Positions 1 to 17,884 of a stretch of DNA of 64,000 nt are shown here, one piece after another. Source of the stretch: an uncultured Chthonomonadaceae bacterium (GTDB lineage: Bacteria > Armatimonadota > Chthonomonadetes > Chthonomonadales > CAJBBX01); contig CAZFLM010000013.1 in NCBI GenBank assembly GCA_964519955.1, positions 33,238 through 97,237 on the forward strand, given 5' to 3'. Every line of letters starts with the position of its first letter. Position 1 is the first letter of the stretch. Under the pieces are notes generated by a model, which worked only from the letters and a program-made list of their open reading frames with translations, was not told the DNA's origin and did not search any database. Made by a program: the position numbers and the translations under genes.

Positions 1-206
1 CGGCGTCGGACATCCCACTGAGCAACGACACCACCGTCTCTCGGAAGCACGCCTCGCTGCAGCCGGGCGACGGCGGCTGGTCGGTCACCGACCTGGGTTC
101 GTCCAACGGTGTGTTCGTGAACGGCGTCAAGATCCAGGGCTCGCAGCCGCTGCGCCCCGGCGACGAGGTGCAGATCGGCAACACTCGATTCCGGTTCGAG
201 GTATAG
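1..206 (+). CDS. FHA domain protein, C-terminal fragment (gene starts upstream of window)
   Basis: Frame ending at TAG 204-206 reads ...VSRKHASLQPGDGGWSVTDLGSSNGVFVNGVKIQGSQPLRPGDEVQIGNTRFRFEV, the C-terminal half of an FHA fold. The frame is open to the window edge. Confidence 0.8.
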   Translation, partial: ASDIPLSNDTTVSRKHASLQPGDGGWSVTDLGSSNGVFVNGVKIQGSQPLRPGDEVQIGNTRFRFEV

Positions 207-209
207 GCC

Positions 210-1703
210 GTGAGATCGCGCATACTGCTAGGCCTGCTGTTCGGCGCCGCCGGTGGCTTCCTGGGGTACCTGCTTCAGGAGGTGTCGGTCCCGCACGACC
301 CCGTGCTGGACCAGACGCGCTCGCAGATGATGACCATCGGCCTGATGGTGGGCGGGCTCATCGGCATGGCGATCGGTGCGGTCGAGGGCGTTGCGGTCGG
401 GTCGCCACGCAAGCTGGCACAGGGCATGGTGCTCGGCGGCATCATCGGCGCCATCGGCGGCCTGTTCGGCATCTACCTCGGCTCGGCCGTGTATGCCATC
501 GCCCTCTTCGGCAAGGACCCGCGGTACATGGAGCAGAGCGGCAACATGCTCGACTTCGTGCACCGCGTCCTCGCCCGGGCGCTGGGCTGGACCTTCCTCG
601 GCGCTCTGCCTGGAGTGGCCGCCGGGGCCGCGACTCTCTCGCCCAAGCGCGCCACGCACGGGCTCATCGGCGGGCTCATCGGCGGGTTCCTGGGAGGCCT
701 GGTGTTCGACCTGGTGGCCAACCTGATCGCTAAGCCGGTAGCCGGGGTCTCGTCTGGGATGATCAATGGGCCGCGCGTCGTTGAAATCGGCGGCCCGGGC
801 CGCGCCATCGGCTTCACGATGATCGGAGCGCTGACGGGGCTGTTCATCGGCCTCGTCGAGGAGCTGCTGAAGCAGGGCTGGGTGCGCGTACTCGCCGGGC
901 GCAACGAGGGCAAGGACTACATCCTCTCCAAGGCGCTTACCGTCATCGGGCGCGACGAGCGGGCCGACGTGCCCGTCTACGGCGACCCGATGCTGCAGCC
1001 CCAGCACGCGGCAATCCGCGTCGAGGGCGGGCGCCACGTGCTGCTGGACGGCGGAGCGCCGCCGACGGCCGTGGTGAACGGACAGCTCACGCAGAACGGC
1101 CGTCACCTCCTGCGCGACGGCGACATGATCCAGCTCGGCCAGGTACGCCTGCTCTTCCGCGAGAAGGCCACCGCGAGCAAGATCGGGCGCCCCGCCACCG
1201 ACGTGGCGCCCGCTCCTGCCGGCGGCCTCTCCGCGATGCCATCGCACCTGTGCCCCTATTGCGGCGCGCAGAAGGATGCCCAGGGCAACTGCCTCTGCAG
1301 CGTGCCGGGAGCAGGAGCGGCCGGACCTGCCGCCGGACAGTGGACCCCGCCGGCGCCCGGCGCACCCATCAGCGTGATGCTGCCGGGCAGCACCTACGGA
1401 GCGCCAGCCGCCGCCATGGGCACCCAGTTGGTCGCGCTGGACGGGCCGTACGCCGGGCAGGTGTTCCTGCTCAAGCCGCAAGGCACCACCATCGGCCGCG
1501 ACCCGGCCCGCGATATCGCGCTGGCCGCCGACACCACGATCTCCCGCCGCCATGCCAGAATTGCCGAGGAAGGCGGACGCCACGTGGTGTACGATGAAGG
1601 GTCATCGAACGGAACCTTCGTGAACGGCGTCCGGCTCACGATGCAGCCGCTTGCCGTCGGAGATGTGGTACAGCTCGGGTCGAGTTCCTTCCGATATGAG
1701 TAG
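210..1703 (+). CDS. Membrane protein with Gly-zipper-like TM segments, two FHA domains and a Cys-cluster linker
   Basis: 497-aa ORF with a GTG start 4 nt after the preceding stop. The N-terminal ~230 aa hold repeated GxxxG-rich hydrophobic segments (GLLFGAAGGFLGYLL, GLMVGGLIGMAIGAVEG, GGIIGAIGGLFGIYLG, GLIGGLIGGFLGGLVF). These are followed by FHA 1 (VIGRDERADVPV..HAAIRVEGGRHVLLD), CPYCGAQKDAQGNCLC, and FHA 2 (TIGRD..SRRHARI..GSSNGTFVNG). Confidence 0.8.
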   Translation: MRSRILLGLLFGAAGGFLGYLLQEVSVPHDPVLDQTRSQMMTIGLMVGGLIGMAIGAVEGVAVGSPRKLAQGMVLGGIIGAIGGLFGIYLGSAVYAIALFGKDPRYMEQSGNMLDFVHRVLARALGWTFLGALPGVAAGAATLSPKRATHGLIGGLIGGFLGGLVFDLVANLIAKPVAGVSSGMINGPRVVEIGGPGRAIGFTMIGALTGLFIGLVEELLKQGWVRVLAGRNEGKDYILSKALTVIGRDERADVPVYGDPMLQPQHAAIRVEGGRHVLLDGGAPPTAVVNGQLTQNGRHLLRDGDMIQLGQVRLLFREKATASKIGRPATDVAPAPAGGLSAMPSHLCPYCGAQKDAQGNCLCSVPGAGAAGPAAGQWTPPAPGAPISVMLPGSTYGAPAAAMGTQLVALDGPYAGQVFLLKPQGTTIGRDPARDIALAADTTISRRHARIAEEGGRHVVYDEGSSNGTFVNGVRLTMQPLAVGDVVQLGSSSFRYE

Positions 1704-1887
1704 GGACGCTGCCCGTTGCGTCCCCTGACGCTGCTTGCTGCGTCCCAGTCCTCCGATAGACAGGGCCCGCCTCGCCGCCGGCCGCGTACCTATAGCACTG
1801 GTCCATCCATTCATAACCGAGGGCCGCGCACGCCACCAGACCGCACATCATCCGGCGGCGGCCCTCGATCTGCCAAGGAGCCTTTCT

Positions 1888-2268
1888 GTGCTGAGCGAGA
1901 GAACCCAACCTAACTACTCCCTGGGCGAGCCCGATCCCGCCGTGACGGCCCTCGCACGCAAAGCCGTGCCGCCGGACCAACTCGGGACCAGGCTCACGGG
2001 GATCGCGGGCCTCTACTGCGGCCACGTGTTCCCGCTGCCGGGAGAGGTGAACATGATCGGGCGAGACACGGTCTGCTCGGTCTCCCTCCACAACGACAAG
2101 ACTGCGTCCCGCATCCATGCCCGCATCGTGCTCGAGGATGCCGGCCACGTGCTCTACGATCAGGGATCGGCCAACGGGACGTTCGTCAACGGCGCCCTGG
2201 TGCGGACATGCTTGCTCGCGCCGGGCGACACGCTGCAGTGCGGCAGCACCCGCCTTCGCTACGAGTAG
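1888..2268 (+). CDS. Small single-FHA-domain protein
   Basis: This is the 3' part of ORF 1735..2268. AAGGAG at 1875-1880 lies 7 nt before the in-frame GTG at 1888. The translation MIGRDTVCSVSL..SRIHARIVLEDAGHVLYDQGSANGTFVNG matches FHA. The start is uncertain and could be as far upstream as 1735. Confidence 0.7.
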   Translation: MLSERTQPNYSLGEPDPAVTALARKAVPPDQLGTRLTGIAGLYCGHVFPLPGEVNMIGRDTVCSVSLHNDKTASRIHARIVLEDAGHVLYDQGSANGTFVNGALVRTCLLAPGDTLQCGSTRLRYE

Positions 2269-2295
2269 GACCACAATCCGGTAGGAGACAGGCAT

Positions 2296-3678
2296 ATGGA
2301 GGATCGGACCCAGCAGATCGGCCAACAGCCCATGCCGCCCGCGGGCGCCGGGGCCACACAGCAGATGAACCGGACGGTGATCGGCGGCCCGAACCTCGGA
2401 CAGACCGCGATGGGCGCGCCCGACCTGGCCCGCACGACCATGGGCGCTCCCATGCGCGCGCTCAGCCTGGAGGCGCTGCCGGGCAGCCGGCTCGCCTTCG
2501 CGCCGGAGCGCGGCCGCGAGCACCTCCTGCTCCAGGTCAAGGCGGACACCTCCGCCATCGGCCGGCGCATGCCGCTCAACGTCTGCCTCGTCATCGACCG
2601 CTCCGGGTCGATGGAGGGCGAGCCACTGGAGTACGTGAAGCGGGCCTGCGCCTACGTCGTCGACCTCCTCGAAGCCACCGACGTCCTCTCCATCGTCACG
2701 TTCGAGGAGCAGGTCGACGTCCTGATGCCCGCCCGCCGCGTGGTGAACAAGGCGCTCATCAAGGAGCATATCAACCGCATCCAGGCCGGCAACACGACGA
2801 ACCTCTACGACGGCATGCTCTCAGGCTGCATGCAGGTGGCCTCGCTGAACGCGCCCGGCTATCTGAACCGCGTGCTGCTGCTGACCGACGGCGAGCCGAC
2901 TTCAGGCATCAAGGACTTCGCGTCCATCGTCGGGCAGGTGCAGGAGCAGCGCAACCGGGGCGTTTCCATCACGGCGCTCGGGTTCGGCGCGGAGTACAAC
3001 GAGGAGCTGATGGCCGGCATCGCCCGGCGCGGCGGCGGCAACTACTACTACATCGCCCAGCCGATGCTCATCCCGGAGGTCTTCCGCAAGGAACTCGAGA
3101 CGCTGATGACCATCACGGCCAAGAACGTGCGCGTGCGCATCAACCTGCCGCGCGGCGTGCAGTGCCGCTACGTCTACGGCGTGCCGCAGCCCAAGATCGC
3201 CGCACGCACGGTCGAGTTCGAGCTGGCCGACATCGAGCGCGGCAAGGTCGTCAGCAACCTGAGCGAGCTGGAGTTCGACCGCCACGTGCCCGGCACCTAC
3301 CGGGTCGCCAAGGTGGACGTGACGTACGACGACGCCGTATCCGGCCGCACCGAGGTGCTGACCGCCGATGCCGTCATCGAGTTCGCCACCGATCGCGCGG
3401 CGGTCGAGGCCTCGAAGAACCCGACGGTGCAGAGCGAGCTGGAAGTTCACCTGGCATCGCGCAACCTCGAGAAGACGATGATGGGCATGCGCACCCAGCA
3501 ACTCACCGCGATGGGCGCCATGCAGGAGCTTCAGCGCACCCGCACCGTGCTGCAGCAGGCCGGCCGCGCGGAACAGGCCCGCGAGGTCACCCTGGCCATG
3601 GAGCAGCTCCAGCAAGGCGGCCAGGTCGAGAAGACCCTCATCGGCACGATCTACAACCTGGACAAGGGCAAGAAGTAG
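2296..3678 (+). CDS. von Willebrand factor type A (vWA) domain protein with intact MIDAS
   Basis: 460-aa ORF with AGGAGA upstream of the ATG. MIDAS-like residues are present: VIDRSGSM, GNTTNLYDG, LLLTDGEPTSG. The N-terminus is low-complexity and Thr/Gln-rich. The C-terminal tail is helical and Gln-rich. Confidence 0.85.
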   Translation: MEDRTQQIGQQPMPPAGAGATQQMNRTVIGGPNLGQTAMGAPDLARTTMGAPMRALSLEALPGSRLAFAPERGREHLLLQVKADTSAIGRRMPLNVCLVIDRSGSMEGEPLEYVKRACAYVVDLLEATDVLSIVTFEEQVDVLMPARRVVNKALIKEHINRIQAGNTTNLYDGMLSGCMQVASLNAPGYLNRVLLLTDGEPTSGIKDFASIVGQVQEQRNRGVSITALGFGAEYNEELMAGIARRGGGNYYYIAQPMLIPEVFRKELETLMTITAKNVRVRINLPRGVQCRYVYGVPQPKIAARTVEFELADIERGKVVSNLSELEFDRHVPGTYRVAKVDVTYDDAVSGRTEVLTADAVIEFATDRAAVEASKNPTVQSELEVHLASRNLEKTMMGMRTQQLTAMGAMQELQRTRTVLQQAGRAEQAREVTLAMEQLQQGGQVEKTLIGTIYNLDKGKK

Positions 3679-3776
3679 CCCGGTGTAGGCCGGTCTGGGA
3701 CCCGGTCAGACGAGGCCATGTCCCGACCTCGGATACCTGCTCACTCGAACGCGCCGGCTCTGGGAGGATTGGGCAG

Positions 3777-4640
3777 ATGTGCACGCAGGTTCGCTTGGCG
3801 GCTCTCGTCGTATCCGTGTGCATGGCTATGGGCGTGGCGCACGCGGCGGCGCCGCCCCCCGACGGGTCCTTCGCCTACAGCAAGTTCGCCAAGACGACGG
3901 GGCTCAAGATCGTGGGTAACGTTGTGGTCGTTCGCGACGTGCTCCGACTGACTCCTGACGTAGAGTGGCGGTCCGGCGCGGTCTGGTATGCGACCAGGGT
4001 GCCGGTCGCCGCGGGGTTCCGAACCACCTTCACGTTCCGGATCACGGCGGCGGACGACTCGTCTGCGGACGGTCTGGCGTTCGTCGTCCAGAACTCGGCG
4101 AGCGATGCCCTCGGCGGACAGGGAGGCAACATCGGGTACGGACAGTGCATCGAGTTGCCCAATCCGGGCGGTATCCCGAACAGCCTGGCGATCGAGTTCG
4201 ATACGTACCCGAACTCGTCCGTCAACGGCCTGTTCACGGTCGACGACCCGAACGACAACCACATCAGCGTCCACACGCGCGGGGCCGAAGCCAACGGCAG
4301 CGACGAGTTCTACTCGCTCGGGTCGGCGCCGTCGGTCGCGGACCTGAAGGATGGCAACGTGCATACGGCGACGATCACGTACACGCCGGGCACGTTGACG
4401 GTCCTGCTGGACGGCGCCAAGCTCGTCGTGCCATACCGATTCGCGGCGGGCGGCAAGTACGCGAACGGCTCGGACGCGCCGGGGCTCGTGCTCGAGGGAG
4501 GGACCGCGTGGGTCGGCATCACTTCGAGCACCGGGATCAGCCACTCGAACCATGACATCCTGAGCTGGTCGTTCGGCCCGGCTCAGGCGCCAGTCGCGCC
4601 GGGCGGTCCCAGACGACCGTCTGGCCGCAATGCCAACTAG
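3777..4640 (+). CDS. Secreted L-type (legume-like) lectin domain protein
   Basis: Only the last 287 codons of the 810-aa ORF 2208..4640 look genuine. GGGAGG precedes the ATG at 3777. A signal peptide is present (LAALVVSVCMAMGVAHAAA). The body reads RLTPDVEWRSGAVWY..FRTTFTFRI..ADGLAFVVQN..GGNIGYG..NSLAIEFDTYPN..DPNDNHISVH..WVGITSSTG, matching the L-type lectin pattern. Confidence 0.7.
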   Translation: MCTQVRLAALVVSVCMAMGVAHAAAPPPDGSFAYSKFAKTTGLKIVGNVVVVRDVLRLTPDVEWRSGAVWYATRVPVAAGFRTTFTFRITAADDSSADGLAFVVQNSASDALGGQGGNIGYGQCIELPNPGGIPNSLAIEFDTYPNSSVNGLFTVDDPNDNHISVHTRGAEANGSDEFYSLGSAPSVADLKDGNVHTATITYTPGTLTVLLDGAKLVVPYRFAAGGKYANGSDAPGLVLEGGTAWVGITSSTGISHSNHDILSWSFGPAQAPVAPGGPRRPSGRNAN

Positions 4641-4646
4641 TGGTGC

Positions 4647-4737
4647 CCAGCTCTCTAGCCTGGATGATGCACAAGTGCCGTGGTGGGATGGGCCTCCGTG
4701 CCCGTCCAGTGCCACTCATGAATGGCCAGCTCTCTAG
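4647..4737. repeat. Palindromic REP/MITE-like element, copy 1, flanked by 12-bp direct repeat CCAGCTCTCTAG
   Basis: CCAGCTCTCTAG occurs at 4647-4658 and again at 4726-4737, bracketing 67 bp that contain the core GGGATGGGCCTCCGTGCCCGTCC. The same core and flanks recur at 46505-46585 and 53968-54048, and the core alone recurs at 42025-42056. Confidence 0.65.
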
Positions 4738-4847
4738 CGGCGTGAGGGGCTCCAGGGACACGCGTCGTCCGAGGGCGCCTCGTCAACAGGTTGAACCTAT
4801 CGCAGATGATCCACCGGCAGGGCGCTCACTGCCTCGGGGGAGGATGA

Positions 4848-5840
4848 ATGACCACGGAATCGACACAGGCGCTGCCCACTGGCGGACAGATGATCCCGGC
4901 GCCGCAGCCCGCCGCGCGGCCGGATGCCACCCAGATGGGGACATCCGTACCGTGCCCCGTCTGCCGGACCGCGAACACGGGCCTGGAAACCTACTGCATG
5001 GAGTGCGGCTTCCTGCTGGCGTCCACGCCGGGCGAAGCTGCTGCGTCGCAGGAGACGCCCTCGCCCGAGCTGATCGAGACCGGCTCCGGCAGGCGGTTCG
5101 CGCTGAAGCCAGGCGCCAACATGGTGGGACGCGAGAACTGCGACGTGCTGCTGATGGACCCGACTGTCTCGCGGCGACATGCCCGCATCGACGTGGGGCC
5201 CGGCGGCGTCTCGGTGACGGACCTCGGCAGCTCCAACGGGACGCAGGTGGACGCGAAGCGCCTGGAGGCCCAGCAGCCCGCCGCAGCCGTCGAGAACGCG
5301 GCGCTGAAGTTCGGCAACACGTCGTTCACGATCGTCGGCATCACGGTGACAGCGAAGGGGTTCCTGCCCAGCGCGGCTCCCGCGCCGCCCGCAGGCGAGC
5401 CGGAGAAGCCGAAGGCCGCTCTGCCTGCAGCGCCGTCGGCCCAGCCCGGCGCCGCGGCGCCGCCTCCGCCCCCGCCGACCGCCGACGCTGCGGTGGCCTG
5501 CCTGAAGCCCACGGGCCCCGGCGGCCAGGAGATCCGCATTCCGTCCGGCCAGATCACGGTTGGCAGGCGCGCGGGCAACAGTGTGGTGCTCACGGGCGAC
5601 CCGTACGTATCCGGCCAGCACGCCGAGATCCTCGCCGATGCCACCGGCTGCTACCTGACCGACGTGGGAAGCACGAACGGCAGCGTGGTGAATGGTGAGC
5701 GGCTGGAGCCGGGCCGCAAGCAGCTCCTGCTCGACGGCGACGAGGTGAAACTCGGGCAGACGTCGTTCGTATTCGAGACACTCGAAGGGCCGCCGACCGA
5801 ATCGGCGGGTGGACCCATCCGGATGGGCGGTGGCCAATGA
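4848..5840 (+). CDS. Zinc-ribbon plus dual-FHA protein
   Basis: 330-aa ORF with GGGGGAGG upstream. It has CPVCRTANTGLETYCMECG (a Cys4 ribbon), FHA 1 (MVGRENCDVLL..SRRHARI..GSSNGTQVD), a Pro/Ala-rich linker, and FHA 2 (ITVGRRAGNSVVL..SGQHAEI..GSTNGSVVNG). Confidence 0.8.
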   Translation: MTTESTQALPTGGQMIPAPQPAARPDATQMGTSVPCPVCRTANTGLETYCMECGFLLASTPGEAAASQETPSPELIETGSGRRFALKPGANMVGRENCDVLLMDPTVSRRHARIDVGPGGVSVTDLGSSNGTQVDAKRLEAQQPAAAVENAALKFGNTSFTIVGITVTAKGFLPSAAPAPPAGEPEKPKAALPAAPSAQPGAAAPPPPPPTADAAVACLKPTGPGGQEIRIPSGQITVGRRAGNSVVLTGDPYVSGQHAEILADATGCYLTDVGSTNGSVVNGERLEPGRKQLLLDGDEVKLGQTSFVFETLEGPPTESAGGPIRMGGGQ

Positions 5841-6733
5841 GCGACGAAGCGCTGGTCGAGGCTGTCGAGGTGTCCGAGCCGCCCGCGGAGGACGAGCGGG
5901 AGATCACCGCCAAGTTCTCGCGCGACGACCTGGTGCGCGGCTGGCGGGAGCGGCAGGAGCGCAAGCCGCGCGTCGTGCCCATCGTCAAGTTCGCCGCGAA
6001 GACGGACCTCGGGCGCGTCCGCGAGAACAACGAGGACAAGTTCGACTACTACGAGCCGGAGGATCCGACGCTGCTGGCCGCTCGCGGGTGCCTCTACGCG
6101 GTGGCGGACGGCATGGGCGGGCACGCGGCTGGGCAGATCGCCAGCGAGTTGGCGCTGAAGACCGCCATCTCTGCGTATTACGATGGTGCGAACGAGAGCA
6201 TCGCCCACGCGCTGCTCGAAGCCATCCAGTGCGCCAACGACACGGTGTTCGCGGTTGCCCACATGGTGCCGGACCGCAGCGGCATGGGCACGACGCTCAC
6301 GGTGGCCGTGCTGGCGGAGGACCGCGTCTATGTCGGCCAGGTGGGCGACAGCCGGGCGTATCTCATCCGCGGCGACGAGGTCCGCCAGGTGACCCAGGAC
6401 CACTCGTGGGTAGCCGAGCAGGTGCGCATGGGCGGCCTCACCGAGGAGGACGCCGAGGTCCACCCGTGGCGCAACGTCATCACGCGGTCCATCGGCAACC
6501 AGGACACGGTGGAAGCCGACGTCTTCGTCGAGGAAGCGCAGACGGGCGACATCTGGGTATTGTGTTCAGACGGGCTTACCGGCCACGTGAAGGCCGACGA
6601 GATCCGCGCAATCGCATCCGTGCACGCACCGTCGGAGGCATGCCGGCAGCTCATCGAGTTGGCCGGAGCCCGCGGCGGGCGTGACAACATTACTGTGGCG
6701 GTGATCGCCATTCGGGGGTTTGACGGTGACTGA
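5837..6733 (+). CDS. PP2C-family Ser/Thr protein phosphatase
   Basis: 298-aa ORF. Its ATG overlaps the preceding stop (ATGA at 5837-5840). Motifs present: RENNEDKF, AVADGMGGHAAG, GMGTTL, VGDSRAYL, CSDGLT, GGRDNITV. Confidence 0.9.
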   Translation: MSDEALVEAVEVSEPPAEDEREITAKFSRDDLVRGWRERQERKPRVVPIVKFAAKTDLGRVRENNEDKFDYYEPEDPTLLAARGCLYAVADGMGGHAAGQIASELALKTAISAYYDGANESIAHALLEAIQCANDTVFAVAHMVPDRSGMGTTLTVAVLAEDRVYVGQVGDSRAYLIRGDEVRQVTQDHSWVAEQVRMGGLTEEDAEVHPWRNVITRSIGNQDTVEADVFVEEAQTGDIWVLCSDGLTGHVKADEIRAIASVHAPSEACRQLIELAGARGGRDNITVAVIAIRGFDGD

Positions 6734-7385
6734 CGAGGAACGGCAGCAGCGCGGACGGATCGTCTCGCGGTGGCTGCGGCATCATCCGGAGGAGGCCGGC
6801 CTGGAGCTGTCGCCCGCGGGTTGGGTTGACATCGCGCGGGTGGTGGCCGCCCTGGAGGAGCGAGAGCTGCCCACGAGCCGCGAGGATCTGGTCCGCCTCG
6901 CAAGGCTGGACGACAAGCCGCGCTTCGAGGTGGAGGACGACAAGATCCGCGCGCGTTACGGCCACTCGCTGCAACTGGGGCAGGAGCCGAACGCGGGAAT
7001 CCCGCCGCCGGCGCTTTACCACGGAACCTCGCGGCGACTTCTGCCGATGATACTAGCAAAAGGCCTCGGCCCGCGCGGCAAGACGTCCTACGTGCAGCTC
7101 TCGCCGAAGCCTGCCGCCGCGCGCGAGGCTGGGATGAAGCACGACAGCGAGCCCATCGTGCTGGAGATCGCCGCCCAGCGCGCCCACGAGGCGGGAGTGA
7201 AGTTCTACCCGCGCGGCAAGGGCGTCTGGCAGAGCGGCCCGGTGCCGCCGGAGTTCCTGGCCATCCGCGAGATGGTGAGCCCGGACCCAGAAGAGCGGGC
7301 TGCCAGATCGGGACCGGCCTCCGGCCAGCGGCGGCGCGTGCCACCCAAGGGTGGCTTCCTGAAGAAGACCGACCGAGACACATAG
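6720..7385 (+). CDS. kptA: RNA 2'-phosphotransferase, Tpt1/KptA family, with basic C-terminal extension
   Basis: 221-aa ORF with a TTG start that overlaps the PP2C gene by 14 nt. It aligns by eye with E. coli KptA: SRWLRHHPEE, GWVDI, KPRFEVEDDKIRARYGHS, LYHGTS, SYVQLS, PIVLEI, GVWQSGPVPPEFL. About 40 extra Arg/Pro/Lys-rich residues follow at the C-terminus. Confidence 0.85.
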   Translation: MTVTDEERQQRGRIVSRWLRHHPEEAGLELSPAGWVDIARVVAALEERELPTSREDLVRLARLDDKPRFEVEDDKIRARYGHSLQLGQEPNAGIPPPALYHGTSRRLLPMILAKGLGPRGKTSYVQLSPKPAAAREAGMKHDSEPIVLEIAAQRAHEAGVKFYPRGKGVWQSGPVPPEFLAIREMVSPDPEERAARSGPASGQRRRVPPKGGFLKKTDRDT

Positions 7386-7445
7386 GTGCGCCGCCCCATC
7401 GGTTGACCGATCGCCCGCGATAGGGCGCAAAGCCGTCGACAAGCG

Positions 7446-9533
7446 ATGAACTCGCATACTCACTACGAGATACTCGGACTGCGCGAAACCGCGACGGCCG
7501 AGGACATCAAGAAGCGCTACCACGACCTGGCGCGCCGGTTCCATCCGGACGTCGCGGGCACGGGCAACGCGACGCGTTTTCGCGCCATCCAGGATGCGTA
7601 CGCCGTCCTGTCGGACCCGGCTGCGCGCCAATCCTACGATGCAACGCTCCCAAAGGCTGGTCGTCCTGCGGCCGGCCCATCGAGCGCAACCGCCACCGCC
7701 GCGCCTCCAACGCACCCCGGTGCATCGCCGCATGAGCCGCAGGTCGACGACGTCATCGCCGGCAAGTACCGCATCCTGCGCGAGATCGCCCGCTCCAACG
7801 ATGTCGTCTACGAGGCCGTGGACCAGACGATGGGACGCCGCCTCGCGGTGAAGGAGTTGGTCCTTCCCGGCAACCTGACGGGGACAGCGCGGCGCGAGCG
7901 GATCGAACGGTTCAACCGGGAAGCCCGGGCCGCGGGCCGTCTCTCGCATCCGAACATCGTCACCGTGTACGACTATGGCGAGGACAACGGCCGGTACTTC
8001 ATCGCGATGGAGTACCTGGAGGGCGGCACGCTGCGCGACCGGATACAGGGCGGCACGAGCCTCCCGCCGGACGAGGCCATCGGCATCGCGTGCCAGGTGC
8101 TGGGCGCCCTCACCCACGCCCACGCGCACAAAGTCGTCCACCGCGACGTGAAGCCGGACAACATCCACATCCAGCCGGACGGCCAGGTGAAGCTGACGGA
8201 CTTCGGCATCGCGCGCCTCACGGAGGAAGCCTCGCTCACCGGCGACGGCCAGGTGTTCGGCACGCCGAGCTACATGTCGCCCGAGCAGATCGAGGGGCGT
8301 GGCATCGACCTGCGCTCCGACCTCTTTTCGCTGGGCGTCGTGCTCTACGAGATGCTGAGCGGGCACAAGCCGTTCACCGGCGACAGCGTCGTCAGCATCA
8401 CGTACAACATCATGCACGCCGAGCCGCCGCCGATGACCGGCATGTCGTTCGCCGTCGAGCAGGTCGTGATGCGCTCCCTGTGCAAGGACCCGCACGGCCG
8501 GTTCCAGTCCGCCGAGGAGATGCGCCGGGCGCTGCGGACGGCCGACACCACGCCCGCCCTGTTCCTCACCAGCTCGATGAACACGGGCGGCACGCTCTAC
8601 GGGCAGACGGCCGCCGTGCCGTACACCATGGGGACGCCGGGCACGATCACGGGCGGCTACGGCATGCCGAGTTCGCCGCCCGTCGGCGGGCCATTCGGCG
8701 CTCCGCAGCACCCCGCCCCGGCGCCGCAGGCCGGACCGTTCGCGACGTGGGGACAGCCGCCGGCGCCAGCCCCGCCGCCGCCACCGGGCTTCGGCAGGCA
8801 GCGCGCCCCTCGGCGCGCCGTCGGGCCCGGCACGCGCGCGTTCTTCTCCGTGCTGATGGCCAGCCTGGTCATCTCCGGCGTGGTCATCGGCTTCATGCTG
8901 CTGTTCGTGCGCTCCTACAGCCAGTACCAGACGCAGGCGGGCCAGCGCAAGCTGATGGCCACGCTGAACAGCGGCTCCGAGCGGTACAACGTCGGCGATC
9001 TCGACGGCGCCGCCTCGGCCTTCGACACCGTGCTCCGGCAGGATCGCGACGGAACCGCCGGGCGCATCGCGCGAACCAACCTCGCCATCACACTCAACAA
9101 GATGGGCAAGCTGGCCTACGAGCGGGGCGACCTGCGCCGCGCCGAGGAGTACTTCGGCAGGGCTCAGGACCTGTACGCCAATCCGAACGACGTGATGGGC
9201 GACAAGGACCAGGAGGCCCTGGATACCGCGCGCCAGAACCTGCAAGCCACCTACAACCGCCTGGGCGTGCGAGCGGACGCGTCGGGGGGCGGCGACAGCG
9301 GGCCACCGGGTCTTTCGGGTGGCGTGTCGTCGGGCGATACGGACGCCAGCCTCCGGCAGCGCATGGGCCAGGCGCAGTCCTCCCTACAGGCCGGCAACCA
9401 GGCCTATCAGCAGGGTAACATGGAGCAGGCCCGCAAGCAATGGCTCGATGCGGTCAATGCTGCTCCCGGATCTCCGGCCGCGCTCGAAGCCCAGCAGAAC
9501 CTCGACAGAACGTCCAACTCGCTCGAAGAGTAG
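7446..9533 (+). CDS. J-domain / Hanks-type Ser/Thr kinase / TM / TPR fusion protein
   Basis: 695-aa ORF. The N-terminal J domain reads YEILGLRETATAEDIKKRYHDLARRFHPDV..AYAVLSDPAARQSYD. The kinase core shows AVKEL, HRDVKPDNIHI, DFGIAR and GTPSYMSPEQ. A Pro-rich linker follows, then one TM segment (FFSVLMASLVISGVVIGFMLLFV) and a TPR-like C-terminal region. Confidence 0.85.
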   Translation: MNSHTHYEILGLRETATAEDIKKRYHDLARRFHPDVAGTGNATRFRAIQDAYAVLSDPAARQSYDATLPKAGRPAAGPSSATATAAPPTHPGASPHEPQVDDVIAGKYRILREIARSNDVVYEAVDQTMGRRLAVKELVLPGNLTGTARRERIERFNREARAAGRLSHPNIVTVYDYGEDNGRYFIAMEYLEGGTLRDRIQGGTSLPPDEAIGIACQVLGALTHAHAHKVVHRDVKPDNIHIQPDGQVKLTDFGIARLTEEASLTGDGQVFGTPSYMSPEQIEGRGIDLRSDLFSLGVVLYEMLSGHKPFTGDSVVSITYNIMHAEPPPMTGMSFAVEQVVMRSLCKDPHGRFQSAEEMRRALRTADTTPALFLTSSMNTGGTLYGQTAAVPYTMGTPGTITGGYGMPSSPPVGGPFGAPQHPAPAPQAGPFATWGQPPAPAPPPPPGFGRQRAPRRAVGPGTRAFFSVLMASLVISGVVIGFMLLFVRSYSQYQTQAGQRKLMATLNSGSERYNVGDLDGAASAFDTVLRQDRDGTAGRIARTNLAITLNKMGKLAYERGDLRRAEEYFGRAQDLYANPNDVMGDKDQEALDTARQNLQATYNRLGVRADASGGGDSGPPGLSGGVSSGDTDASLRQRMGQAQSSLQAGNQAYQQGNMEQARKQWLDAVNAAPGSPAALEAQQNLDRTSNSLEE

Positions 9534-9578
9534 GCACGCCGCTTCCACTCAGAAGTCCGCCAGGAAGGAGCCGCACCC

Positions 9579-10712
9579 GTGCGTCGACGTCCCTCCCCCA
9601 AGCCGCGCCGCGCCACCGCGCCCGCCGAGATCCCCGAGGTCCAGATCCTTCTCAAGCAGGGCGACGTCGCCGCCGCCAACTCGCTCCTGCGGATAGCGAC
9701 CGGCGACGACCGCGCGGCCGCGAAGGCAGCCCGCGCCGCCCTCTACACGCTCAGACAAGCGGGGATCGAGCCGGAGCCGGTGGAGGCGCCCGTGGAACCC
9801 GCGGAACCCGCGCCCGCGGACACCGAGCACCGCAGCTACCGTGCCTGGGCGTGCCATCCGAGCCCGCACGGCGACATCGTGGTCATCTTCGGCACACCCG
9901 TCTCTCGGGGCAGGCGCATCCAGCTCTGGACGGCGGAGGCAACCCTGTTCGGCGGGCTGGCCGATCTGACGCACGCATCGCTGACGGCGGAGGAGTTCGA
10001 TCGCCATCTGGCCGAGATGGCGCTGGACGACGAGGCGCCCCTCTACGAGACGACGGTGGAGCACGCGAAGGCGCTCGTCGTCGAGGCGAACGAGGTGGCG
10101 CGGAAGCGTGGGTCGCTGACCCCGACGGGCTACTACGAGTGGCGCGGCGACGTGGGCGAAGGCGGCTCCGGCGCGCGGCCCCGCATCTACGACCTGCTGG
10201 ATGCCGACGCCGTGGTGGCCGACCTGGGCCTGCCCCGCGATCCGGAGAGCGCGCTGGACAACAAGCGGCGGGTCACCTGGATGCTCAATCCGGACACCGT
10301 GGGACCGTGGCTCAAGCCGGTCGCGGAGGCCGTGCACAGCCCGGTGGCGATCGACGACTCCCAGCGCAAGAGGATGGCCGAGCGTGTGTTCGAGGAGGCC
10401 GCCGACGCGATCTTCGATGCAGATGCCCGCCGAGCCTGGAGGCGTATGCTCGAGGAGAGCGCCGCCGCCCTGGCCGTTCTGGGCGAGGACGAAGCCGCCC
10501 GGCAGGGCCTCTACCACGCGCTGCAGTTCGACGACCGGCCGGCGCGCGACATCCCGATGGCCATGCACCTCGTCCGCCGCACCGTGGGCGTGGTGATGAC
10601 CTATCTGCTCCGTGAGGAACGCAGGGCCCGCGGCGAGACCGTCGAGGCTGACGATGAGGCGCCACCCGAGGACGACCAGCCGGAGCCGCCGAGCCTGATC
10701 GAGCGGGCGTAG
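9579..10712 (+). CDS. Hypothetical protein (acidic, helical), last gene of the FHA/kinase array
   Basis: 377-aa ORF. GGAAGGAG lies 7 nt upstream of the GTG at 9579, which is 45 nt after the kinase stop. I recognised no domain. Composition is more protein-like than the antisense ORF 9549..10937. Confidence 0.55.
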   Translation: MRRRPSPKPRRATAPAEIPEVQILLKQGDVAAANSLLRIATGDDRAAAKAARAALYTLRQAGIEPEPVEAPVEPAEPAPADTEHRSYRAWACHPSPHGDIVVIFGTPVSRGRRIQLWTAEATLFGGLADLTHASLTAEEFDRHLAEMALDDEAPLYETTVEHAKALVVEANEVARKRGSLTPTGYYEWRGDVGEGGSGARPRIYDLLDADAVVADLGLPRDPESALDNKRRVTWMLNPDTVGPWLKPVAEAVHSPVAIDDSQRKRMAERVFEEAADAIFDADARRAWRRMLEESAAALAVLGEDEAARQGLYHALQFDDRPARDIPMAMHLVRRTVGVVMTYLLREERRARGETVEADDEAPPEDDQPEPPSLIERA

Positions 10713-10741
10713 GTCTGCCGCGACCTTCCAGGCCGGCGATA

Positions 10742-10806
10742 ACGTAACGATGCTACAAATCGGTCGGAGGATTCCGGCGCGCTGCCGTCGTACATAATCG
10801 TTACAT
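10742..10806 (+). promoter_or_regulatory. AT-richer patch with inverted repeat upstream of pntAA (candidate promoter/operator)
   Basis: ACGTAACGAT (10742-10751) and ATCGTTACAT (10797-10806) are 9/10 complementary. TACAAA and CATAAT (-10-like hexamers) lie inside this locally AT-rich stretch. The pntAA GTG is at 10830. Confidence 0.3.
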
Positions 10807-10829
10807 CCCACCCATCGGAGGGCGGCAGA

Positions 10830-12005
10830 GTGCTGGTTGGTGTTCCGGCGGAAACGTATCCTGGCGAGAAGCGGGCCGCGTTGGTTCCCGCATCCTTGGC
10901 GGCGCTGAAGAAGGCCAAGATCGACGTGGCGGTGCAAGCCGGGCTCGGTCTGGCCGCGGGCTACACGGACGCTGCCTACGCCGAAGCAGGCGCCGAGGTC
11001 GTGGCGGACCGCGCCGAGATCCTGCGCCGCTCCGACGTACTGCTGCAGGTGCGCGCGCTCGGAGCGGACGCCGACGGGCTCGCCGCCGACCTGCCGAACC
11101 TGCGCGCCGGGCGAGTCGTCATCGCCACGATGGACCCGCTCTCCGAGCCGCAGCCCGCCACCAAGGCGGCCGAGGCCGGGGTGACCGCATTCGCGCTGGA
11201 GCTGCTTCCCCGCATCACCCGCGCGCAGTCGATGGACGTGCTCTCCAGCCAGGCCAACCTCGCCGGCTACAAGGCCGTGATCATCGCGGCCGACTCGCTA
11301 GCCAAGCTCCTCCCGATGATGATGACCGCCGCCGGCACCATCGCGCCCTCGAAGGTCTTCGTCATCGGCGCGGGCGTCGCGGGGCTCCAGGCCATCGCCA
11401 CGGCCCGGCGCCTCGGCGCGGTGGTCAGCGCCTACGACGTGCGCCCCGCGGTGAAGGAGCAGGTCGAGAGCCTGGGCGGCCGGTTCGTCGAGCTGGAGAT
11501 CGAGGCCGGCGACTCGCAGACCTCGGGCGGCTACGCGAAGGCCATGGGCGAGGAGTTCTACCGCAAACAGGCCGAGCTGATGACGCGGGTGGTCGCCGAG
11601 AACGACGTGGTCATCACCACCGCCGCCATCCCGGGCCAGAAGGCGCCCACGCTCGTGACCAAGGCGATGGTCGAGGCGATGCAGCCCGGCGCCATCGTGG
11701 TGGACATCGCGGCGGAGCGCGGCGGCAACTGCGAGTTGACCGTGCCGGGCGAGACCATCGACCACAACGGCGTGACGATCGTGGGTCCGCTGAACCTGCC
11801 CTCCACGGTCCCGTTCCACGCCAGCCAGCTCTACGCCAAGAACATCGTGACGTTCCTGCTGCACCTGGTGAAGGACGGCGCGCTGAACATCGACACGGCC
11901 GACGAGATCACCCGCGACACGCTGGTGACGCAGGGCGGCCAGGTCGTGAACGCCCGGGTGCGCGAGAAGCTGGGCCTGGAGCCGCTGCCCGCACCGGGGG
12001 CCTAG
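10830..12005 (+). CDS. pntAA: NAD(P) transhydrogenase subunit alpha part 1
   Basis: 391-aa ORF with GGAGGG 7 nt upstream of the GTG. It has the alanine-dehydrogenase-like fold motifs: VIGAGVAGLQAIATARRLGA, TTAAIPGQKAP. Confidence 0.9.
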   Translation: MLVGVPAETYPGEKRAALVPASLAALKKAKIDVAVQAGLGLAAGYTDAAYAEAGAEVVADRAEILRRSDVLLQVRALGADADGLAADLPNLRAGRVVIATMDPLSEPQPATKAAEAGVTAFALELLPRITRAQSMDVLSSQANLAGYKAVIIAADSLAKLLPMMMTAAGTIAPSKVFVIGAGVAGLQAIATARRLGAVVSAYDVRPAVKEQVESLGGRFVELEIEAGDSQTSGGYAKAMGEEFYRKQAELMTRVVAENDVVITTAAIPGQKAPTLVTKAMVEAMQPGAIVVDIAAERGGNCELTVPGETIDHNGVTIVGPLNLPSTVPFHASQLYAKNIVTFLLHLVKDGALNIDTADEITRDTLVTQGGQVVNARVREKLGLEPLPAPGA

Positions 12006-12128
12006 GACCCGGCGCGCCGCGGAGGGCGCGCCCCACAGGCCGGTTGCAGCGCCGTGGGCCGATCGTAGGGCAGGGCCTCCGCACCCCGCCGGGGGCGTTC
12101 GGCGCCCAACCATAACAAGGATTGCTGG

Positions 12129-12422
12129 ATGGATTCCCTGATCGCTAGTCTCTACGTGTTCGTGTTGGCAACCTTCCTCGGCTTCGAGGTCATCCGCCGC
12201 GTGTCGCCGCTGCTGCACACGCCGCTGATGTCGCTCACGAACGCGATCTCCGCCATCAGCCTCGTCGGGTCCATCGTGATCCTCGGCGAGCAGAAGAGCA
12301 CGCTGACGATGGTCCTCGGCGCGCTGGCGGTCACCGCCTCCACCATCAACGTGGTCAGCGGCTTCCTCATCACCGACCGCATGCTCAAGATGTTCAAGAA
12401 GCGCGACCCGAAGAAGTCGTAG
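12129..12422 (+). CDS. pntAB: NAD(P) transhydrogenase subunit alpha part 2 (membrane)
   Basis: 97-aa hydrophobic ORF (LHTPLMSLTNAISAISLVGSI) lying between pntAA and pntB. Confidence 0.9.
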   Translation: MDSLIASLYVFVLATFLGFEVIRRVSPLLHTPLMSLTNAISAISLVGSIVILGEQKSTLTMVLGALAVTASTINVVSGFLITDRMLKMFKKRDPKKS

Positions 12423-12443
12423 CCCAACGGAGCCATCAACCCC

Positions 12444-13838
12444 GTGCAACAGACCTTCACCCAGATAGCCTATCTGATCGCCTCCGCTCTCTTCGTGCTC
12501 GCCCTGAAGTGGCTGAGCGCGCCGGCCACCGCTCGCAAGGGCGTATGGGCTGGCGAGATCGGCATGGTCCTCGCGATCGTCGGCACGCTCCTGCTGCCGG
12601 AGATCGTCGCGTTCCACTGGATCATCGTCACGATCCTCATCGGCACGGCCATCGGCATCCCCATCGCCATCCTGATGCCGATGACGGCCGTCCCGCAGCG
12701 GACCGCGCTGTCGCACTCGTTCGGCGGCCTGGCCGTGGGCCTCGTCGGCGCGGCGGAGTACTACCTCTGGCTCTCCGAGGGCGCCGCCTCGATCTCCCAC
12801 TTCAAGATGGGCGTCGTCTCGTTCGAGGTCATCCTGGGCTTCCTCACGTTCACCGGCTCGCTGATGGCGTTCGGCAAGCTGCAGGAGCTGCTGCCCACCC
12901 GGCCGATCACGTACAAGGGCCAGAACTTCGTCAACTTCGTGCTGTTCGGGATCGCCCTGGCGGCCGGCGTGTGGCTGACCATCGATCCCTCGCAGTCGCT
13001 GCTCTTCCCACTGCTGATCGCGCTCTCGCTGACATTCGGCGTGCTGCTGATTATCCCGATCGGCGGGGCCGACATGCCGACGGTCATCTCCCTGCTGAAC
13101 TCCTACGCCGGGCTCTCCGCCTGCGCGATGGGCTTCGTGCTGGAGAACAAGCTGCTGATCATCGCCGGCGCCCTGGACGGCTCGTCCGGGTTCATTCTCT
13201 CGGTCATCATGTGCAAGGCGATGAACCGGTCCTTCACCAACGTGCTGTTCGGCGCGTTCGGCCAGGTCCAGCAGAAGGCGATCGGCGCAAAGGAGGAGCG
13301 GACGGTCCGCAGCGCGAGCCCGGAGGAAGCCGCCGCGATCCTGGAGACCTCGCAGACCGTCGTGGTGGTGCCGGGCTACGGCATGGCGGTCGCCCAGGCC
13401 CAGCACAAGGTGCGCGAGCTGTACGACGCCCTCACGAAGCGCGGCGTGGACGTGAAGTTCGGCATCCACCCGGTCGCGGGACGCATGCCGGGCCACATGA
13501 ACGTGCTGCTGGCCGAGGCCGACATCCCCTACGACCACCTGCTCGAGATGGACGAGATCAACCCCGAGCTGCCGCACACCGACACGGTGCTCATCATCGG
13601 CGCCAACGACGTGACCAACCCGGCGGCGCGCACGGACCAGAGCAGCCCGATCTACGGCATGCCGATCATCGACGTCGACAAGGCGCGCACGGTGATGGTG
13701 ATCAAGCGGAGCATGAGTTCCGGCTTCGCGGGCATCGACAACGAGCTGTACTACATGGACCGCACCATGATGCTCTTCGGCGACGCCAAGGCGTTCGTCG
13801 GCGAGATCGTCAAGGAACTGGCGGCCAACAAGGACTGA
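12444..13838 (+). CDS. pntB: NAD(P) transhydrogenase subunit beta
   Basis: 464-aa ORF with a polytopic N-terminal half. The C-terminal dIII motifs are VVVPGYGMAVAQAQ, HPVAGRMPGHMNVLLAEA and GANDVTNPAA. Confidence 0.9.
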   Translation: MQQTFTQIAYLIASALFVLALKWLSAPATARKGVWAGEIGMVLAIVGTLLLPEIVAFHWIIVTILIGTAIGIPIAILMPMTAVPQRTALSHSFGGLAVGLVGAAEYYLWLSEGAASISHFKMGVVSFEVILGFLTFTGSLMAFGKLQELLPTRPITYKGQNFVNFVLFGIALAAGVWLTIDPSQSLLFPLLIALSLTFGVLLIIPIGGADMPTVISLLNSYAGLSACAMGFVLENKLLIIAGALDGSSGFILSVIMCKAMNRSFTNVLFGAFGQVQQKAIGAKEERTVRSASPEEAAAILETSQTVVVVPGYGMAVAQAQHKVRELYDALTKRGVDVKFGIHPVAGRMPGHMNVLLAEADIPYDHLLEMDEINPELPHTDTVLIIGANDVTNPAARTDQSSPIYGMPIIDVDKARTVMVIKRSMSSGFAGIDNELYYMDRTMMLFGDAKAFVGEIVKELAANKD

Positions 13839-17806: not shown

Positions 17807-17816
17807 GGCGAGGGCC

Positions 17817-17884
17817 GGGACTTGGGGGTTGGGACTTGGGTGTTGGGACTTGGGGTTGGGACTTGGGGGTCGGGGATTGGGGCC
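17817..17884 (+). repeat. G-run repeat family copy B: five tandem 13-14-nt units
   Basis: The units are GGGACTTGGGGGTT GGGACTTGGGTGTT GGGACTTGGGGTT GGGACTTGGGGGTC GGGGATTGGGGCC. They begin 11 nt after the stop at 17806, with the G-rich strand on the sense strand of that gene. Confidence 0.7.

Follow-up and report, generated by a model that had tools for sequence, protein, structure and literature searches.

What role Tpt1/KptA plays in bacteria, which lack fungal-type tRNA splicing, is an open question. Few leads on that role are available besides gene context, and the position of such a gene within an operon offers a tentative, testable clue; the paper on the structure of the Clostridium thermocellum enzyme (CthTpt1) called the role of Tpt1 in bacteria a 'longstanding conundrum'. 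In the window, the whole 64,000-nucleotide stretch of an uncultured Chthonomonadaceae genome analyzed here, a KptA gene lies between one gene for a Ser/Thr phosphatase and another for a Ser/Thr kinase, raising the question of how this enzyme came to be there and what it does in such company. Our literature search found no report of KptA in association with a Ser/Thr kinase/phosphatase/FHA operon, nor of KptA/Tpt1 in operons of the Stp1/Stk1 type.

An earlier note, made from the sequence alone, had read the gene as a KptA-like open reading frame at 6720–7385 (+), and both the frame, with LRH, IRARYGHS, LYHGTS, YVQLS and a basic C-terminal stretch of ~39 aa in its translation, and the assignment to the KptA/Tpt1 family were borne out. 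The 219-aa product matched Pfam PF01885 with E = 2.8e-30 (106.1 bits against a gathering score of 26) over residues 8–170 and profile positions 3–173 of 177, as well as 12 PDB Tpt1/KptA sequences with E-values of 3e-31 to 5e-5, the best of which spanned residues 12–178. The AF2 model, with a core pLDDT mostly of 84–95, has the two lobes of the family, a winged-helix RNA lobe and an ART-like NAD+ lobe, and a Foldseek search with this model returned Tpt1/KptA structures at all of ranks 1–21 (E = 3e-18 to 1e-8). The TM-scores against the Tpt1/KptA crystals were only ~0.5, probably because the inter-lobe orientation of the model differs from theirs. Compared with the solved enzymes, namely CthTpt1 (6E3A), Thermococcus kodakarensis KptA (9LD4) and those of Aeropyrum pernix (1WFX) and Runella slithyformis (7KW8), the window KptA shares the two-lobe architecture, in which the winged-helix RNA lobe is N-terminal to the NAD+ lobe, at 34–37% identity over ~175 residues. 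It also matched all four NCBIfam RNA 2'-phosphotransferase equivalogs (NF002012–NF002015), each below its cut-off (the best, NF002014, gave 141.8 bits against a 239-bit cut-off), which makes it a divergent member of the family.

The start of the gene had been placed at TTG 6720, overlapping the phosphatase gene by 14 nt, and this had to be revised: the gene almost certainly starts at GTG 6726 and ends with the TAG at 7383–7385 (6726..7385, +), so that the overlap is 8 nt. This start follows from an identical 219-aa gene call in public data, from a 71%-identical orthologue that keeps the GTGACTGA junction without the TTG, and from a G-run 7 nt upstream of the GTG. A start well downstream, which would have spoken for separate expression, was not found. 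A foreign origin by composition was ruled out, as the GC3 of KptA (0.85) resembles that of the neighboring genes (0.87–0.95).

The genes around KptA, all on the same strand, form a signaling operon. Its first gene (210..1703, +) encodes a protein with two FHA stretches (Pfam FHA E = 1.3e-29), whose orthologues occupy the equivalent position in related loci at 46–74% identity. It is followed by a vWA-domain protein (2296..3678, +; Pfam VWA E = 4.2e-20), the best-conserved operon member with 61–84% identity across loci, and by a secreted legume-lectin-domain protein with a hydrophobic N-terminus (3777..4640, +; Lectin_legB E = 4e-21, Lectin_L-type E = 1e-25). A tblastn search for the lectin gene in related loci gave no match, and its absence from all related operons marks it as an insertion specific to the window genome. 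A second FHA-FHA protein (4848..5840, +; Pfam FHA E = 3.6e-34 over two stretches) has its top NCBIfam similarity, under the cut-off, to FhaB/FipA, and its stop overlaps by 4 nt the start of the Ser/Thr phosphatase (5837..6733, +; Pfam PP2C E = 1.4e-15), which passes NF033484 Stp1_PP2C_phos (250.3 bits against a 230-bit cut-off) and is thus of the Stp1/IreP type. The phosphatase stop and the KptA start overlap in GTGACTGA (6726..6733, +), a translational-coupling junction on direct reading of the sequence; the same junction is found in locus L037, and the overlap reads ATGA in L043 and TAATG in L009. The proposed translational coupling of KptA to the PP2C gene inside a kinase/FHA operon was thereby upheld by the start/stop overlap and by the domain matches of the neighbors.

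The kinase gene (7446..9533, +) starts exactly 60 nt past the KptA stop, as the earlier note had it. Its product contains the expected kinase domain, but the protein as a whole is a fusion, in which an N-terminal DnaJ domain (Pfam DnaJ E = 6e-19) is followed by a Hanks-type kinase domain (Pkinase E = 3.3e-49), a Pro-rich linker, one hydrophobic TM-like stretch and, at the C-terminus, TPR (TPR_2). The kinase domain carries the canonical Hanks motifs HRDVKPDN, DFG and SPE, and among PDB entries it is closest to StkP, PknB and PknA (E = 1e-50). The DnaJ domain is limited to the window subclade and was discarded on this ground as part of the link with KptA. Judged from gene spacing alone, KptA would be co-transcribed with the operon, and no independent promoter was detected for it in a scan that has little power at 69% GC. 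Over 1–12500, the promoter scan returned a single promoter-like site, which lies on the wrong strand, and the terminator scan returned no more terminator-like sites than expected from shuffles; both are uninformative at this GC content. The 60-nt spacer between KptA and kinase was rejected as an RNA element (z = −0.84 against shuffles; the spacer is 13 nt in L037 and not conserved), and neither a tRNA scan nor an Rfam scan of the window gave any hit.

The combination of a Stp1/IreP-family PP2C with a Hanks-type receptor kinase identifies a module of the Stp1/Stk1 type, as in the PstP/PknB and PrpC/PrkC operons, with which the window also shares the StkP/PknB/PknA-like kinase domain and an FhaB/FipA-like FHA protein. 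The window kinase is not a PASTA kinase, however: it scored 306 bits against the 450 of NF033483, over the kinase domain only, and its extracellular sensor is TPR whereas the known ones carry PASTA. The window operon further differs by its vWA protein, its two double-FHA proteins and, in the window lineage, the N-terminal DnaJ domain. The RslTpt1 gene of Runella lies in an RNA-repair cluster, in contrast to the protein-phosphorylation operon of the window. In Bacillus subtilis, prpC-prkC are co-transcribed with the RNA-related genes rlmN/yloN upstream and cpgA/rsgA downstream, which provides a loose precedent for the placing of an RNA enzyme in an operon of this type. Compared by domains, the DRA0331–DRA0334 operon of Deinococcus radiodurans has the same vWA, STK, FHA and PP2C types as the window, but differs in gene order and fusions (its PP2C has its own FHA) and lacks KptA.

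The association of KptA with this module extends well beyond the window. Among loci with a KptA bearing the same basic tail, those named being all of Chthonomonadales, KptA is preceded by PP2C in 21 of 23 and followed by the kinase in 18 of 19, so the recurrent adjacency that the earlier note had asked about is real. The order FHA/vWA/FHA/PP2C/KptA/STK was found in all 13 Armatimonadota species-representative loci, and L037, L041, L043 and L045 also show it, while none of 94 ordinary KptA loci outside the clade had this context. Synteny and congruent trees throughout the order point to vertical inheritance of the operon, which persists while flanking genes differ among loci, over a GC range of 50–73% and at ~40% KptA identity. 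The sister clade, however, has five orthologous operons without KptA, and tblastn found no KptA remnant in these five, ruling out a degraded copy. Trees indicate one gain or loss of the operon KptA, with two lineages having moved the gene later: in L049 it has left the operon and is flanked by the genes of an aldo-keto reductase and a polysaccharide deacetylase, and in L125 the operon is split and KptA remains with the kinase. Because the association goes back to one evolutionary event, confined to one clade within a single order, the loci cannot be counted as independent recurrences, and the sister-clade operons indicate that the signaling module does not require KptA. The suggestion that KptA activity is tied to the module is hence supported by conserved linkage and weakened by its single origin.

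The active site is largely that of an authentic Tpt1. The motifs listed in the earlier note are present but do not coincide with the catalytic set, the Arg-His-Arg-Arg tetrad (CthTpt1 R18, H19, R68 and R121), which in the window KptA is R18, H19, R66 and position 119. The R18-H19 codons (6777..6782, +) align with CthTpt1 Arg18-His19 and these residues are invariant in the clade; R66 (6921..6923, +), within DKPRFE, aligns with CthTpt1 Arg68 (chain numbering) and is invariant in both of our alignments, A1, which took in archaeal-type KptAs as well, and A2, restricted to the tailed KptA clade. R18, H19, K64, R66, Y78, H99 and T101, shared with the solved enzymes, correspond in the alignment to the residues with which CthTpt1 binds 2'-PO4, 3'-PO4 and NAD+. 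The HGT motif that contacts the NAD+ ribose (CthTpt1 H101/T103) is present as H99-G-T101, whose His is missing in 7 of 17 clade relatives; in RslTpt1, the H99A-T101A double mutant is lethal in yeast. The equivalent of H19 in CthTpt1 contacts the RNA 3'-PO4 only, and H19 is invariant across the clade. Arg is also retained at the fourth tetrad position by 14 of the 17 aligned members, and both observations speak for a nucleic acid as the substrate.

Past the Tpt1 fold, the protein continues from about residue 181 (nt 7266), whereas PDB Tpt1 alignments stop at ~179. The basic tail of ~40 aa described in the earlier note thus corresponds to the C-terminal stretch of ~39 aa seen here, Arg-rich and of the PRRRRP(K/R)GGF type, which the solved enzymes (177–206 aa) lack. 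Residues ~194–219 (7305..7382, +) are predicted to be disordered (AF2 pLDDT <50), and regular-expression searches and alignments located within them the motif RRRVPPKGGFLKK (7329..7367, +), with a clade consensus of GxPRRRRP(K/R)GGF(L/M/T)K. The peptide motif is unchanged despite many synonymous codon differences, and the codons vary freely, ruling out conservation as a nucleotide-level element; the Arg-rich, RGGF-like motif is under purifying selection. It was found on no other ORF of the window or of any of the loci, and this confinement to KptA excludes a shared sorting or docking signal. Unrelated KptA lineages also have Arg-rich C-termini (P0169, P0189 and P0270), where basic tails arose independently, and we therefore read the tail as a putative RNA-binding appendage.

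The explanation we favor, with moderate confidence, is that a genuine but divergent Tpt1/KptA entered the operon junction once and was kept there as an accessory enzyme acting on nucleic-acid phosphate with NAD+. KptA would have entered between the Stp1-type PP2C and PknB/Stk1-type kinase genes in the ancestor of one Chthonomonadales clade and been retained since in a vertically inherited FHA/vWA/FHA/PP2C/kinase operon. It is most likely an active enzyme co-expressed with the signaling module. Its substrates may be RNA 2'-PO4 and/or 5'-PO4 ends, and the disordered tail would give it extra RNA affinity. KptA would be produced in fixed proportion to phosphatase and kinase and might then follow the state of the envelope-sensing module in its level and possibly, via phosphorylation, in its activity; no phospho-acceptor or FHA-binding motif was identified in it with confidence. 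A functional coupling to the module is plausible, with KptA as an accessory of the signaling operon and not a core component.

The same evidence would also be consistent with KptA being a passenger, an independent RNA end-healing or de-modification enzyme kept by inertia in a stable, strongly expressed operon. The sister-clade operons that function without KptA or any remnant, the single insertion event, the L049 gene that left the operon entirely with its tail still kept, and the basic tails in other KptA lineages would all fit this reading, as would other insertions that the operon has accepted and that bear no obvious relation to it, namely the window lectin, a YhgA-like transposase (L001) and a Cys-rich gene (L005, L006). 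However, inertia accounts less readily for the same junction in nearly all loci across such divergence in GC and sequence and despite changed flanks, for tight or overlapping start/stop junctions held in several lineages, or for the KptA that accompanies its kinase when the operon splits. We regard a mere passenger as possible but rather unlikely. The specific form of coupling in which KptA is a kinase-regulated modifier of RNA ends is about equally tentative. If true, it would provide the first physiological context for a bacterial Tpt1, and it is favored over the related idea that KptA acts on phospho-Ser/Thr of pathway proteins, either capping the phosphate with ADP-ribose or taking it off in an NAD+-dependent manner. 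Tpt1 chemistry is that of a phosphate monoester attacking NAD+. The phospho-Ser/Thr idea would account for a gene fixed between those of a Ser/Thr phosphatase and a kinase, but it is very improbable.

Returning to the accessory enzyme that we favor, the fourth tetrad position raises the question of whether all its members perform the complete reaction. The position is occupied by K119 (codon AAG, 7080..7082, +), equivalent to CthTpt1 Arg121, with an adjacent 1-aa insertion (HMMER alignment 'glgprgktsyvqls' in the window against 'glqpqgr-qyvhls'), and YVQLS departs from the usual (H/Y)VHLS; in both respects the window KptA is unlike the solved enzymes. The loss of catalytic Arg or His raised as an objection in the earlier note thus applies to this one residue of the window subclade, R18, H19 and R66 being intact. 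GK is fixed here in P0001–P0004, the window subclade, while the other clade members have (K/R)R. In RslTpt1, Ala at the fourth tetrad position (R119A) cuts specific activity 625-fold, with step 2 slowed 33-fold and build-up of the 2'-P-ADPR intermediate, and CthTpt1 Arg121 contacts the vicinal 3'-PO4, which 5'-terminal phosphates lack. Tpt1 enzymes also ADP-ribosylate 5'-PO4 ends (PMC12678800). The substitution in the window subclade may thus slow step 2 or favor terminal phosphates. A stronger version, in which the enzyme is step-arrested or substrate-shifted and leaves ADP-ribose behind (as RNA 2'-phospho-ADP-ribose or a 5'-phospho-ADP-ribose cap), making it the writer of a mark instead of a remover of phosphate, would draw on the same substitution, insertion and change from HVHLS, but we consider it improbable. 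The positive charge of Lys may substitute for that of Arg, L012/P0031 has Lys here in an otherwise canonical KKQHVHL motif, and the remaining active-site residues are intact. A literature search for the Arg-to-Lys change at this position (R138K) found nothing.

A role in defense, in which the vWA, FHA, PP2C and kinase proteins sense an invader and release KptA as an NAD+-consuming or nucleic-acid ADP-ribosylating toxin, is highly unlikely. KptA belongs to the ART superfamily, linkage of vWA, PP2C and kinase has been noted in conflict-system neighborhoods and in actinobacteria (Kaur et al. 2020), and the kinase domain matches PADLOC PD-T4-6 models. However, the matches to PADLOC-DB v2 amounted to generic kinase-domain similarity (PD-T4-6, mad6) and one weak PP2C match, with none for KptA, the vWA protein, both FHA proteins or the ORF downstream of the kinase, so that its component sets are not matched and a defense-system assignment was ruled out. 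The phosphatase is a Stp1/IreP equivalog, half of the lineage has no KptA, and the operon, syntenic and tree-congruent over the order, is flanked in the window by the housekeeping genes PntAB, PheA and AccA. The NAD-consuming effector proposed in the earlier note was abandoned on these grounds.

Least likely of all, alongside the phospho-Ser/Thr idea, would be a writer-eraser pair on the model of archaeal tRNA Up47, in which the kinase is an ArkI-like RNA 2'-kinase and KptA erases its mark. In thermophilic archaea, the accessible text of Ohira et al. 2022 describes ArkI as an RNA kinase with a protein-kinase fold that supplies an internal 2'-phosphate, which KptA removes in vitro and in vivo, a pairing of KptA with a kinase-fold protein resembling that of the window; the two genes are not described as adjacent in that text. 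Against this, the motifs and closest structures of the window kinase are those of a canonical Hanks-type protein kinase, it is a membrane receptor with its own cognate Stp1 phosphatase and FHA partners, and the sister clade has the same kinase without KptA.

The single origin of the association, the KptA-less sister clade and organisms that are mostly known from metagenomes limit the value of the locus as evidence on bacterial KptA in general. What it offers is one KptA lineage held clade-wide in a kinase/phosphatase/FHA operon with a conserved RNA-binding-like tail. The kinase gene is usually followed by a further conserved gene (9579..10712, + in the window), whose product had no match in Pfam or NCBIfam; tblastn found its orthologues downstream of the kinase in L001–L003, L008, L030 and L038–L040.

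The ORF next to the PP2C gene that the earlier note assigned to Tpt1/KptA is a genuine gene, securely placed in this family: it matched Pfam PF01885 (E=2.8e-30) and twelve PDB Tpt1/KptA sequences (E=3e-31 to 5e-5), its core was confident in an AlphaFold model built from 20 homologues, and the best 21 Foldseek matches of this model in the PDB were all Tpt1/KptA structures. The protein scored below all four NCBIfam equivalog cut-offs and is a divergent family member. The start was corrected from TTG at 6720 to GTG at 6726, so that KptA overlaps the end of the PP2C gene by 8 nt; the gene is called as 219 aa in public data, the 71%-identical orthologue (locus L037) has the same GTGACTGA junction and lacks the TTG, and a G-run lies 7 nt 5' of the GTG. 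The 60-nt gap between KptA and the kinase gene was given correctly.

Third-position GC singled out one coding frame through this region of the window (G+C about 69%), where all genes lie on the forward strand. An FHA-FHA protein (210-1703), a vWA protein (2296-3678), a secreted legume-lectin-domain protein (3777-4640; Lectin_legB E=4e-21) and a second FHA-FHA protein (4848-5840) precede PP2C (5837-6733) and KptA (6726-7385), which are followed by a kinase gene encoding DnaJ, Ser/Thr kinase, TM and TPR segments (7446-9533), a conserved ORF without assigned function (9579-10712), PntA (10830-12005) and PntB (12444-13838). The PP2C exceeds the Stp1/IreP equivalog cut-off of NCBIfam, the kinase domain has canonical Hanks motifs with StkP, PknB and PknA as nearest relatives, and the FHA proteins resemble FhaB/FipA. 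The operon is akin to Stp1/Stk1 modules and to the vWA-STK-FHA-PP2C operon of Deinococcus. In the account that we favor with moderate confidence, KptA would be at least partly active as a Tpt1-type enzyme using NAD+ on a nucleic-acid phosphate, with its basic tail helping to hold RNA. Its predicted co-transcription with the Stp1-type phosphatase, often with translational coupling, would make its dosage follow the signalling module; that the kinase, phosphatase or FHA proteins also act on KptA itself is a tentative suggestion, and functional coupling of KptA to the module is plausible but somewhat less likely than not.

The recurrent adjacency of KptA to PP2C, STK and FHA genes raised in the earlier note was found, but confined to one lineage. 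Scanning species-representative genomes gave 33 KptA loci. Each of the 13 in Armatimonadota, the majority named Chthonomonadales, had the order FHA-FHA, vWA, FHA-FHA, PP2C, KptA and kinase-TPR, usually with a homolog of the 9579-10712 ORF next; the 20 others (Alphaproteobacteria, Bacteroidota and others) lacked both the tail and all of these neighbors. A metagenome scan added 80 KptA loci, six of them tailed: four had PP2C upstream (L045-L047, L050), one was a split operon (L048, identical to L125) and one had an unrelated context (L049), while none of the 74 ordinary loci had PP2C, kinase, FHA or vWA genes nearby. Including the window, L037, L041 and L043, PP2C lay upstream in 21/23 tailed-KptA loci and the kinase downstream in 18 of the 19 on sufficiently long contigs. 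Several lineages have tight junctions (overlaps of 8, 4 and 1 nt; gaps of 9 nt). The loci cover GC contents of 50-73% and KptA identities down to about 40%, and they differ in the genes beyond the operon.

Seven orthologous operons were also sampled through PP2C, regardless of KptA, and five of these (L038, L039, L040, L042, L044) had no KptA between PP2C and kinase, nor any remnant detectable by tblastn. In neighbor-joining trees of PP2C, vWA and kinase, each a midpoint-rooted distance tree without support values, these five formed one clade, sister to the 17 KptA-bearing operons. The tailed proteins were monophyletic in the KptA tree; L049 and L125 are nested within them and are therefore secondary departures. 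Because of the KptA-less sister operons and these nested exceptions, the data show a single gain (or a single loss) and long retention afterwards; the signalling operon can do without KptA, and tailed KptA can exist outside it. The main rival to our favored account, that KptA is a passenger gene, is the less likely of the two, though it deserves serious weight.

Four loci carry unrelated insertions adjoining KptA that have not displaced it. A YhgA-like putative transposase (L001 6890-7948; Transposase_31 E=5e-23) and an opposite-strand ORF of 579 aa (L004 5626-7365) separate PP2C from KptA, a junction that insertions seem to have entered repeatedly. An additional conserved gene (about 270 aa) lies between KptA and kinase in L005 (3663-4472) and L006 (1901-2728); it is rich in Cys, with several CxxC pairs, and had no significant match in Pfam. 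The relocated KptA of L049 (2502-4909) is flanked by an aldo-keto reductase and a polysaccharide deacetylase, closely packed (16-nt gap, 4-nt overlap) and nested by sequence among operon-linked proteins; in L125 only KptA, kinase and the downstream ORF are still together. The lectin gene of the window has no counterpart in any related operon, including the 71-84%-identical L037 locus, and is a recent insertion between vWA and the second FHA-FHA gene.

The basic tail described in the earlier note was borne out. Residues ~181-219 reach past every solved Tpt1 in sequence alignment, residues 194-219 are predicted to be disordered (pLDDT <50), and one monophyletic KptA group bears GxPRRRRP(K/R)GGF(L/M/T)K near the C-terminus (window form GQRRRVPPKGGFLKK). 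Codon usage at Arg, Gly, Pro and Phe positions varies freely while the peptide is preserved, and selection has therefore acted on the protein, not on DNA or RNA. The motif was absent from every other ORF in the window and all fetched loci. Of 1.84 billion cluster representatives searched, 7,828 matched the search profile, and only about 10 of the best 150 matched through the tail; the same search also turned up very long multi-domain proteins with one or several KptA domains, unrelated to the window (P0168, 776 aa with four matched stretches; P0307, 1294 aa). Arg-rich C-terminal stretches also end several unrelated KptA lineages (P0169, P0189, P0270). The tail is a short Arg-rich extension, RGG-like and disordered, carried by an RNA enzyme and of a kind that evolved more than once, and its most economical reading would be added nucleic-acid affinity.

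The catalytic tetrad Arg-His-Arg-Arg (R18, H19, R68 and R121 in Clostridium thermocellum CthTpt1) corresponds to R18, H19, R66 and position 119 in the window KptA, where position 119 is Lys beside a one-residue insertion, a state common to it and its three nearest relatives (P0002-P0004). The NAD+-contacting H99 and T101 are present, as are K64 and Y78. The fourth Arg contacts the 3'-phosphate adjoining the 2'-PO4 in CthTpt1, and its replacement by Ala in Runella slithyformis RslTpt1 lowers specific activity 625-fold, with build-up of the ADP-ribosylated intermediate; a full-text literature search found no data on Lys there. A step-arrested or 5'-end-capping variant specific to the window subclade would follow from the Arg to Lys change and be compatible with either our favored account or a passenger gene, but is improbable. 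The same subclade has the tail form RRRVPPKGGF and is the only one with a DnaJ domain at the kinase N-terminus (window 7446-7650, forward strand; L037 10662-12713), which tblastn did not find in other KptA-bearing Chthonomonadales loci and which is not among the domains listed for kinase genes of the PP2C-anchored loci.

Most of the wider tailed clade keeps (K/R)R-Q-x-V-H-L; all aligned members have H19, and 14/17 retain the fourth Arg. Since these RNA-specific contacts are kept, the sequences favor a nucleic-acid over a protein substrate, and a phosphoprotein substrate is unlikely. His is missing from the HGT motif, which contacts the NAD+ ribose, in 7/17 members (L006, L007, L008, L009/L011/L013, L012, L041, L043; variants FFGT, YHAL, FFAI, FYGV, YYGC, FCGV and YCGI), and L007 has GYS in place of GHS; NAD+ chemistry may be altered or reduced in some clade KptAs.

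A role for KptA as defence effector is unlikely: PADLOC returned no matches for KptA, vWA or either FHA protein, housekeeping genes (PntAB, PheA, AccA, a GH5 cellulase and others) make up the remainder of the window, and the operon is a core phospho-signalling operon, inherited vertically, not a defence island. An ArkI-like writer-eraser is also unlikely. In full-text searches, no paper turned up that connects KptA/Tpt1 with PP2C, FHA or Hanks kinases, and the Aravind-group survey placed KptA in RNA-repair contexts. The novelty lies in a tail restricted to one lineage, a changed tetrad and a new setting in an operon, all within a known family of enzymes. As a clue to what KptA does in bacteria, the association can be tested and is moderately interesting; it is less striking than first supposed, because it arose through one event in a single clade and the sister clade does without it.

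The PntA/PntB transhydrogenase lies downstream of the operon in the window (10830-13838) and L037, and YjeF (NAD(P)HX repair) upstream in L037 (1469-3097), L039 (1-1250) and L125 (1734-3317); these NAD(P)-related flanks may be coincidental, but are notable next to an NAD+-consuming enzyme. Elsewhere in the window, a short (GGGACTT)n tandem repeat (17812-17882; period 7/14/27, score 97-98) lies in the gap between one ORF that ends at 17806 and another that starts at 18044, and 19357-20424 (forward strand) encodes an N6/N4 DNA methyltransferase carrying a RAMA domain at its C-terminus.
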